A stretch of DNA of 10,441 nucleotides, taken from a virus (Duplodnaviria; Heunggongvirae; Uroviricota; Caudoviricetes). Location of the stretch: IMG/VR virus record IMGVR_UViG_2681813269_000009. The stretch is one strand, 5' to 3'. Shown in pieces: positions 6,621-7,179 of this stretch. Both the position numbers and the translations under genes were made by a program. Each line of letters starts with the position of its first letter. Within the stretch, counting starts at the first letter, position 1. The notes under the pieces are model-generated. The model saw only the letters and a program-made list of their open reading frames with translations, did not search any database and was not told the origin of the DNA.

Positions 6621-6696
6621 GGCCCTTTAGCTCAGTGGTGAGAGCGAGCGACTCATAATCGCCAGGTCGCTGGTTCAAATCCAGCAAGGGCCACCA
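6621..6696 (+). tRNA. tRNA-Ile2 (anticodon CAT, lysidine type; Met not excluded)
   Basis: Hand-folded cloverleaf: acceptor ggccctt / aagggcc, anticodon loop ctCATaa, T-loop ttcaaat, 3' CCA. Closely resembles E. coli ileX and the ileZ of Stx phages, from memory. Confidence 0.8.
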
Positions 6697-6703
6697 TCAC
6701 ATA

Positions 6704-6780
6704 CCGCCATTAGCTCATCAGGAAAGAGCGCCAGCCTTCGAAGCTGGCTGCGCGGGGTTCAAGTCCCCGATGGCGGTCCA
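6704..6780 (+). tRNA. tRNA-Arg (anticodon TCG)
   Basis: Acceptor ccgccat / atggcgg, D-stem gctc / gagc, anticodon stem ccagc / gctgg with loop ctTCGaa, T-arm cgggg-ttcaagt-ccccg, discriminator t, CCA. Confidence 0.75.
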
Positions 6781-6793
6781 TTATCTGCATCAT

Positions 6794-6833
6794 GCGTTGT
6801 TAGCTCAGCCGGACAGAGCAATTGCCTTCTAAG
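6794..6833 (+). tRNA. tRNA-Arg (TCT), 5' part only, truncated by assembly gap
   Basis: Identical to the first 40 nt of the complete tRNA at 7103-7179, then runs into N at 6834. Confidence 0.5.
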
Positions 6834-6982
6834 NNNNNNNNNNNNNNNNNNNNNNNNNNNNNNNNNNNNNNNNNNNNNNNNNNNNNNNNNNNNNNNNNNN
6901 NNNNNNNNNNNNNNNNNNNNNNNNNNNNNNNNNNNNNNNNNNNNNNNNNNNNNNNNNNNNNNNNNNNNNNNNNNNNNNNNNN
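6834..6982. other. Assembly gap (149 N)
   Basis: Run of N. Confidence 1.
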
Positions 6983-7002
6983 AAATCCAGCAAGGGCCAC
7001 CA
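6983..7002 (+). tRNA. 3' end fragment of a second tRNA-Ile2 copy
   Basis: aaatccagcaagggccacca is identical to 6677-6696 and emerges from the gap. Confidence 0.5.
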
Positions 7003-7009
7003 TCACAAA

Positions 7010-7089
7010 CCGCCATTAGCTTATCAGGAAGAGCAGACGACACGATAACAGGGTTGTTGGTGCGGGGGCGGGTCCCCGATGGCGGTCCA
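7010..7089 (+). pseudogene. Degenerate tRNA-Arg-like element
   Basis: Keeps the acceptor stem (ccgccat / atggcgg), a D-arm and 3' CCA of the Arg-TCG tRNA. The anticodon and T arms are replaced by gacgacacgataacagggttgttggtgcgggggcgggt, which has no canonical 7-nt anticodon loop or TTC T-loop. Confidence 0.45.
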
Positions 7090-7102
7090 TTATCGGTATT
7101 CA

Positions 7103-7179
7103 GCGTTGTTAGCTCAGCCGGACAGAGCAATTGCCTTCTAAGCAATCGGTCACTGGTTCGAATCCAGTACAGCGCGCCA
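7103..7179 (+). tRNA. tRNA-Arg (anticodon TCT)
   Basis: Acceptor gcgttgt / acagcgc (one G-U pair), anticodon stem attgc / gcaat with loop ctTCTaa, T-arm actgg-ttcgaat-ccagt, discriminator g, CCA. Confidence 0.8.

Follow-up and report, generated by a model that had tools for sequence, protein, structure and literature searches.

In all probability, the window, by which the whole stretch of 10,441 nucleotides analysed here is meant, is a scaffold in which the contigs of two prophages are interleaved, and the degenerate tRNA-like element that it carries at 7010-7089 is a dead allele of the tRNA gene argN. The scaffold would stem from the draft genome of a Shigella sonnei-like strain, in which contigs of two paralogous lambdoid prophage remnants were set alternately. 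The true order of the first locus (locus A) would be Q, methyltransferase, ileZ, argN, argO, STnc100 and IS600, and that of the second (locus B) a paralogous Q, ileZ, the argN relic, argO, DUF3927, STnc100, an iraM-like gene and IS600. As this leaves one tRNA unit per locus, there would be no tandem duplication of the tRNA island, which an earlier note made from the letters of the window had proposed. The misjoining itself is probable, as it is deduced from near-identical closed genomes and not from the source strain's own reads.

tRNA genes and layout of the scaffold

ARAGORN calls three tRNAs in the whole window, with the anticodons CAT, TCG (Arg) and TCT (Arg). GenBank and RefSeq name the same sequences ileZ (tRNA-Ile), argN and argO (both tRNA-Arg). 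The genes stand on one strand in the order ileZ, argN slot and argO, downstream of a Q module, and share identity with annotated lambdoid clusters. Ahead of ileZ in locus A, a promoter-like site occupies 6583-6611. The features of the window are as follows.

1-6833, plus strand: contig A1 of prophage remnant A, with hok/sok, DUF968, RusA, Q, methyltransferase, ileZ, argN and the start of argO
4128-4949: Q gene (contig A1)
5522-6580: DNA methyltransferase gene (contig A1)
6621-6696, plus strand: ileZ of locus A, anticodon CAT (ARAGORN; Rfam RF00005, 72.5 bits; tRNA-Ile in RefSeq/GenBank)
6704-6780, plus strand: argN of locus A, intact tRNA-Arg(TCG) (ARAGORN; Rfam RF00005, 58 bits)
6794-6833, plus strand: first 40 nt of argO of locus A, at the end of contig A1
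6834-6982: run of 149 N, probable false scaffold join between A1 and B1, the flanks of which lie 0.67-0.78 Mb apart in closed chromosomes
6983-7914, plus strand: contig B1 of prophage remnant B, with the last 20 nt of ileZ, the argN relic, argO and a DUF3927 gene
7010-7089, plus strand: argN relic, most likely a pseudo-tRNA of 80 nt (alignment to argN and fold; no ARAGORN or Rfam call)
7103-7179, plus strand: argO of locus B, intact tRNA-Arg(TCT) (ARAGORN; Rfam RF00005, 68 bits)
7915-7956: run of 42 N, probable false join between B1 and A2
7957-9500, plus strand: contig A2, locus A continued, with the first STnc100 copy (8005-8194) and IS600 from 8368 on
9501-9511: run of 11 N, probable false join between A2 and B2
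9512-10441, plus strand: contig B2, direct continuation of B1, with the second STnc100, an IraM/PmrD-like gene, a DUF1737 fragment and the start of IS600
9688-10023, minus strand: IraM/PmrD-like gene (contig B2)

Reading of the sequence, ARAGORN and Rfam all place the tRNA features where the earlier note had put them. The first of its two units indeed consists of Ile(CAT), Arg(TCG) and an Arg(TCT) that is cut by the gap, with argO stopping at the run of 149 N, and the second of the 3′ end of ileZ, the 80-nt element and a complete argO. The spacer differences that it quoted between the units are correct as well. The argN gene at 6704-6780, the anticodon arm of which carries GCCAGCCTTCGAAGCTGGC, folds into a clean cloverleaf of -35 kcal/mol (z = -2.85).

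A comparison of the window with itself revealed that not only the 149-N run but each of the three N runs is flanked by a diverged pseudo-duplication. The stretches 6677-6833 and 6983-7142 around the run of 149 N are 84% identical, 7835-7914 and 7964-8043 around the run of 42 N share 92.5% identity, and 8044-8186 and 9512-9656 around the run of 11 N share 97.9%.

Several further elements accompany the two remnants. The left part of the prophage segment contains a hok/sok type I toxin-antitoxin module (1789-2114), composed of a sok RNA at 1789-1964 (112 bits, Rfam) and an open reading frame of 70 amino acids of the Hok family at 1902-2114. Copies of IS600, an element of the IS3 family, trail both prophage remnants (8368-9500 and 10406-10441). 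Contig A2 stops about 1.1 kb into one of them and the window itself 36 nt into another, and repeats present in many copies, like these, probably had a share in the mis-scaffolding. Rfam matches to the STnc100 sRNA occur twice, 1.5 kb apart, at 8005-8194 (123.6 bits) and at 9474-9662 (71.2 bits), the latter, in B2, being clipped by the run of 11 N. The two matches are no local duplication of STnc100, as one copy belongs to A2 (locus A) and the other to B2 (locus B); single prophages carry one.

The two prophage loci in closed chromosomes

Locus A was searched for among contigs encoding the exact methyltransferase of the window, which include the complete chromosomes CP104423.1 and HE616528.1, the latter presumably being that of Shigella sonnei 53G. 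A search for locus B by contigs encoding the iraM-like protein of the window led to the same chromosomes. In CP104423.1, window 1664-6833 is matched at 99.2% (segment L123, 143-5312) and window 7957-9500 at 99.9% (L123, 5378-6920), with 65 nt between the end of A1 and the second match. In the closed genomes, argO of locus A runs 37 nt past the end of A1 and A2 starts 28 nt after that. This closed locus A contains exactly one ileZ-argN-argO unit, and ARAGORN finds only the tRNAs CAT, TCG and TCT in it. Window 6983-7914 is 100% identical to another segment of CP104423.1 (reverse complement of L131, 3893-4824), and window 9512-10441 is 100% identical to the reverse complement of L131, 4825-5754, thereby directly abutting the B1 match at 4824. 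Here ARAGORN detects only the tRNAs CAT and TCT, with the relic between them. The two loci are about 0.67-0.78 Mb apart, being located at 1.86 and 2.53 Mb in CP104423.1 and at 2.10 and 1.31 Mb in HE616528.1.

The closed chromosomes thus show two loci with one tRNA unit each, and the two copies do not adjoin on one DNA molecule in these chromosomes, which carry the same sequences. The earlier note had named a single tRNA unit in long reads as the outcome that would speak against a tandem, and this outcome is found by proxy in the closed genomes of near-identical strains. Its argument that the copies are true paralogs rather than an assembly duplicate was half right: they are indeed diverged paralogues, but they are not in tandem and represent the clusters of two different prophage remnants. 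The conclusion from divergence to a real tandem was therefore wrong, given the distance between the remnants.

Independent assemblies agree with this picture. In a prophage of strain EC958 (L001), window 6983-7914 corresponds to 3001-3932 (99.5%) and window 9512-10413 to 3933-4833, so that both parts are contiguous there, with 99.3-99.5% identity overall, and window 7957-9500 appears as an interloper relative to it. The two loci are also resolved, at 100% identity, in L066, an IMG/VR assembly of independent origin, where each has a single unit of its own and the two lie about 3 kb from each other across a single-N join; window 5425-6833 is, for example, 100% identical to its positions 6088-7496. 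This record, IMGVR_UViG_2671180603_000013, is composed of concatenated pieces of both prophage loci, with a single N at 2232 and at 6087. Viral contigs in databases can thus be chimeric too when they stem from draft genomes of isolates.

Contig A1 itself is not uniform. Of its 43 mismatches to the closed locus A, 39 cluster within window 4050-4750, inside Q, where the sequence nearly equals that of the paralogous Q gene in locus B. Such a B-type patch in the Q gene of the A chain reflects either gene conversion between the prophages or a mixing of consensus sequences by the assembler.

That the tandem is nevertheless real in the source strain, having arisen through prophage recombination or an IS600-mediated rearrangement, with the N runs standing for unsequenced or masked stretches, can hardly be credited. 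The scaffold as given does place the units only 149 N apart, and 149 nt would just accommodate the 37 missing nucleotides of argO, a spacer of 56 nt and 56 nt of ileZ. Copies of IS600 flank both loci and could mediate a rearrangement. However, a real tandem would require three separate local duplications, each of them at an N gap, whereas a single interleaving covers all three. In addition, all closed chromosomes examined, and L066 too, have A1 contiguous with A2 and B1 with B2. What speaks against the interleaving is that the sizes of the gaps (149, 42 and 11) disagree with the true distances, which are 65 nt between A1 and A2 and 0 nt between B1 and B2, so that it does not account for the logic of the scaffolder. 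The idea that the N runs are masks over real sequence was set aside, since the alternation of A and B makes masking irrelevant.

The tandem arrangement was also absent from everything scanned, namely 5,426 closed E. coli genomes, GTDB representatives, IMG/VR and JGI metagenomes. When the argN unit joined to the relic unit was used as query against the closed E. coli genomes, megablast bridged the diverged middle, which made a count of matches with at least 80% coverage uninformative, and the matches were ranked by identity instead. The best of them reached 90% identity over only about 160 nt of the record, which means that a single unit had been aligned twice; a real tandem would be expected at about 100% and at the top of the ranking. 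A longer query of 2,001 nt (window 5900-7900) gave best matches spanning 1,695 nt, exactly one unit of 306 nt short. A pattern scan of GTDB representatives for the argN-to-relic spacing yielded no match, the window itself included, and scans of IMG/VR and of JGI metagenomes for an argO-to-ileZ junction found none either. An interleaving of two prophages remains by far the better account, and the scaffold should hence not count as evidence of tRNA gene amplification in prophages. More generally, where a genome abounds in insertion sequences, N runs in its prophage regions can conceal interleaved paralogues.

The argN relic

The 80-nt element at 7010-7089 is most likely the locus-B allele of argN and a pseudo-tRNA. 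The earlier note had called it a degenerate tRNA-like element in place of tRNA-Arg(TCG), which is borne out by its homology to argN at both ends and by its position in the same slot. Nor does it score as a normal tRNA, which the note had named as an outcome that would speak against its reading: ARAGORN makes no call at 7010-7089, and a search of 218 nt gave no match to RF00005 even at E ≤ 10 (the gathering threshold being 29 bits). The alignment with argN shows that acceptor stem, D arm, T stem and CCA end are retained. The acceptor stem has its 7 bp (CCGCCAT pairing with ATGGCGG, followed by T and CCA), and the D arm (GCTT-ATCAGGAA-GAGC) keeps G18 and G19. The anticodon arm of argN is replaced by 27 unrelated nucleotides, and this central segment carries GACGACACGATAACAGGG. 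There is no anticodon stem of 5 bp with an anticodon loop of 7 nt. The replaced region folds as a stem of 7 bp with a loop of 3 nt or, by inspection of the alignment, as a stem of 5 bp with a loop of 11 nt. The T loop reads GCGGGT (6 nt) instead of the TTCAAGT of argN and is thus no 7-nt T54-Ψ55-C56 loop. No source of the 27 nt was found elsewhere in the window on either strand when up to three mismatches were allowed.

The relic stands in the position of a functional tRNA, is homologous to it and has lost essential features, as would be expected of a tRNA pseudogene. The arginyl-tRNA synthetase of E. coli recognizes A20, C35 and U or G at position 36, and the L-shape arises from pairing of the T54-Ψ55-C56 loop with G18 and G19. 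Without an anticodon loop, without C35 and U/G36 and, in this allele, without the T loop, the relic should be neither charged nor able to decode. Its consideration as a tRNA with an expanded anticodon loop, as a suppressor or as an intron-containing tRNA was abandoned as well, given a loop of 11 nt, a missing layout of U33, anticodon and purine 37, the lost T loop and the lack of any model score.

To place the relic among other alleles, 205 units of the type ileZ-X-argO, mostly from IMG/VR and representing 64 alleles, were surveyed. Arg(TCG) was called in the slot of 103 of the 205 units, 95 were of the relic type and a few had other anticodons, so that the relic allele family accounts for about 46% of the sampled units. 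None of the 95 relic-type units in this IMG/VR sample was called as a tRNA. The same replacement of 27 nt is present in all relic alleles, which points to a single origin. Both losses also occur separately: in phiP27 and L166 the anticodon arm is replaced next to a canonical T arm, and in L019 and L058 the anticodon arm is intact and the T loop degenerate. Mosaic alleles such as those of phiP27 and L019 indicate an exchange between relic and intact argN.

These observations suggest a sequence of events in which the anticodon arm of a phage tRNA-Arg(TCG) gene would have been swapped for 27 unrelated nucleotides, apparently once and in an ancestral phage, with the TΨC loop degenerating later in the commonest lineage. 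Transcription of ileZ and argO probably continues to include the relic, and RNase P may yet cut its intact acceptor stem. The relic would persist by hitch-hiking, as the two tRNA genes on either side of it are of use and the phage module that contains them recombines. The variants are compatible with drift in a dead gene and its recombination with intact alleles, although neutrality is not proven by this; of the possibilities offered in the earlier note, that of a decaying pseudogene agrees with the allelic series seen in other phages and prophages.

The other possibility is that the relic is a maintained, non-decoding tRNA-like RNA, serving as a decoy for anticodon nucleases or toxins that attack tRNA-Arg, as a processing or spacer element between ileZ and argO, or as a regulator. 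The relic does keep acceptor stem with CCA, D arm and T stem, and it folds into four arms with -28.9 kcal/mol. This fold is, however, no better than that of shuffled sequences (z = -1.3, 25 of 200 shuffles as good), and no Rfam family matches the element. Preserved ends would also be expected of a young allele if recombination with intact argN homogenises it time and again. Likewise, the single allele family found in almost every second sampled unit and its presence in viable phages might hint at a function, as might the three central single-nucleotide polymorphisms, all of which lie within the 11-nt loop of the alternative ACGAC/GTTGT hairpin and spare its possible stem. Against this stands a G35C variant in 15 of 101 units, which disrupts the 7-bp hairpin of the minimum-free-energy fold without any compensation, in contrast to argO, where a change in the T stem is compensated. 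The T loop varies from 4 to 13 nt through slippage in a G run (13 nt being reached in L202), and breaks of the acceptor stem occur (L145 and L187).

At 0.012, the relic shows less nucleotide diversity than the intact argN alleles do (0.073), but as the relic is a young allele these rates are not comparable. Its low diversity fits a young allele of single origin and would also fit constraint. A comparison with ileZ, argO and the flanks was considered as a neutrality test and discarded, since it does not separate constraint from recent origin; because of the youth of the allele, neutrality is not provable by diversity statistics. Taken together, a maintained function appears very unlikely, and at least as unlikely is its more specific form, in which the relic, present in near half of the sampled lambdoid ileZ-argO modules, would be maintained and processed from the late transcript as a decoy or processing scaffold. 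A dead allele of argN is the preferred reading.

The survey of units also brought up other changes in the slot and in its neighbour. In the IMG/VR prophages L150 and L179, the tRNA in the argN slot is called as Lys(TTT) and has a diverged anticodon stem, and in L159 a single G-to-T change in the anticodon leads to Arg(TCT). Both have the appearance of alleles of one gene whose anticodon has switched. A common argN allele, seen in about 25 IMG/VR units (e.g., L154, L147 and L168), has GAAGGCGG at the 3′ acceptor strand, which results in an A6-A67 mismatch. This allele also has a GCGGAG/CCCCG T stem and is still called as Arg(TCG) by ARAGORN. It may be partly disabled and would then represent a second, independent route of argN decay. 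Among the argO alleles from IMG/VR, a compensated change of the T stem from CACTGG/CCAGT to CAGTGG/CCACT was found in 15 units and a change of the 3′ CCA to CTA in 19, while in two units the 3′ half of argO is swapped for unrelated sequence. This indicates that argO decays too in some prophages.

The relic is by no means rare. A single ileZ-relic-argO unit used as query is covered to at least 80% in 1,149 closed E. coli genomes; the closed E. coli genomes among the matches listed show 99.8% identity, and 967 records reach at least 99%. At these units, RefSeq annotates only tRNA-Ile and tRNA-Arg. Annotation pipelines thus pass over an argN relic that is very common between ileZ and argO in prophages of E. 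coli and Shigella and could be labelled as a tRNA pseudogene. The relic is a case of ordinary phage tRNA decay and a very common allele that has been in public phage records for many years. No open question hangs on it, and it would become moderately interesting only if it were a functional tRNA-like RNA.

Relation to known phages and assembly errors

The arrangement of N runs resembles the scaffolding errors that repeats induce in short-read assemblies of genomes rich in insertion sequences and prophages. Here, likewise, the contigs end in ileZ, argO, STnc100 and IS600, and copies of the two paralogous loci alternate, with N runs in between, which is nothing unusual for errors of this kind.

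The ileZ-argN-argO cluster of Stx2-converting lambdoid phages (AP012536, AP012537; 933W/VT2-Sakai type) has the same genes, order and spacing as window 6621-6833, and both clusters are located downstream of a Q antiterminator module. Unlike in the Stx2 phages, no stx genes follow the cluster in locus A. Instead, this decayed prophage has a region of the STnc100 type and IS600 there. A search of the literature for ileZ, argN and argO by name returned nothing relevant, and the usable statements concern only the number of tRNA genes in Stx phages (PMC4631060; also PMC7946995). According to these, phiP27 has two tRNA genes, and 933W, VT2-Sakai and their relatives have three (PMC4631060).

The arrangement of the second unit (6983-7179), relic included, is 100% identical in phage mEp460_ev081, and EC958 carries this allele of the relic as well. 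In the Stx2e phage phiP27 (AJ249351/NC_003356), the pair of ileZ and argO encloses an unannotated relic of about 100 nt, with 93% identity to the second unit. Only ileZ and argO are annotated there, which matches the count of two tRNA genes given for phiP27 in the literature (PMC4631060). The relic of phiP27 shares the 27-nt replacement of the anticodon arm with that of the window. However, it has a canonical TTCGAGT T loop and spacers of the argN type, whereas the relic of the window has GCGGGT and other spacers. Judged by these letters, the allele of the window would be one step further decayed or recombined than that of phiP27.
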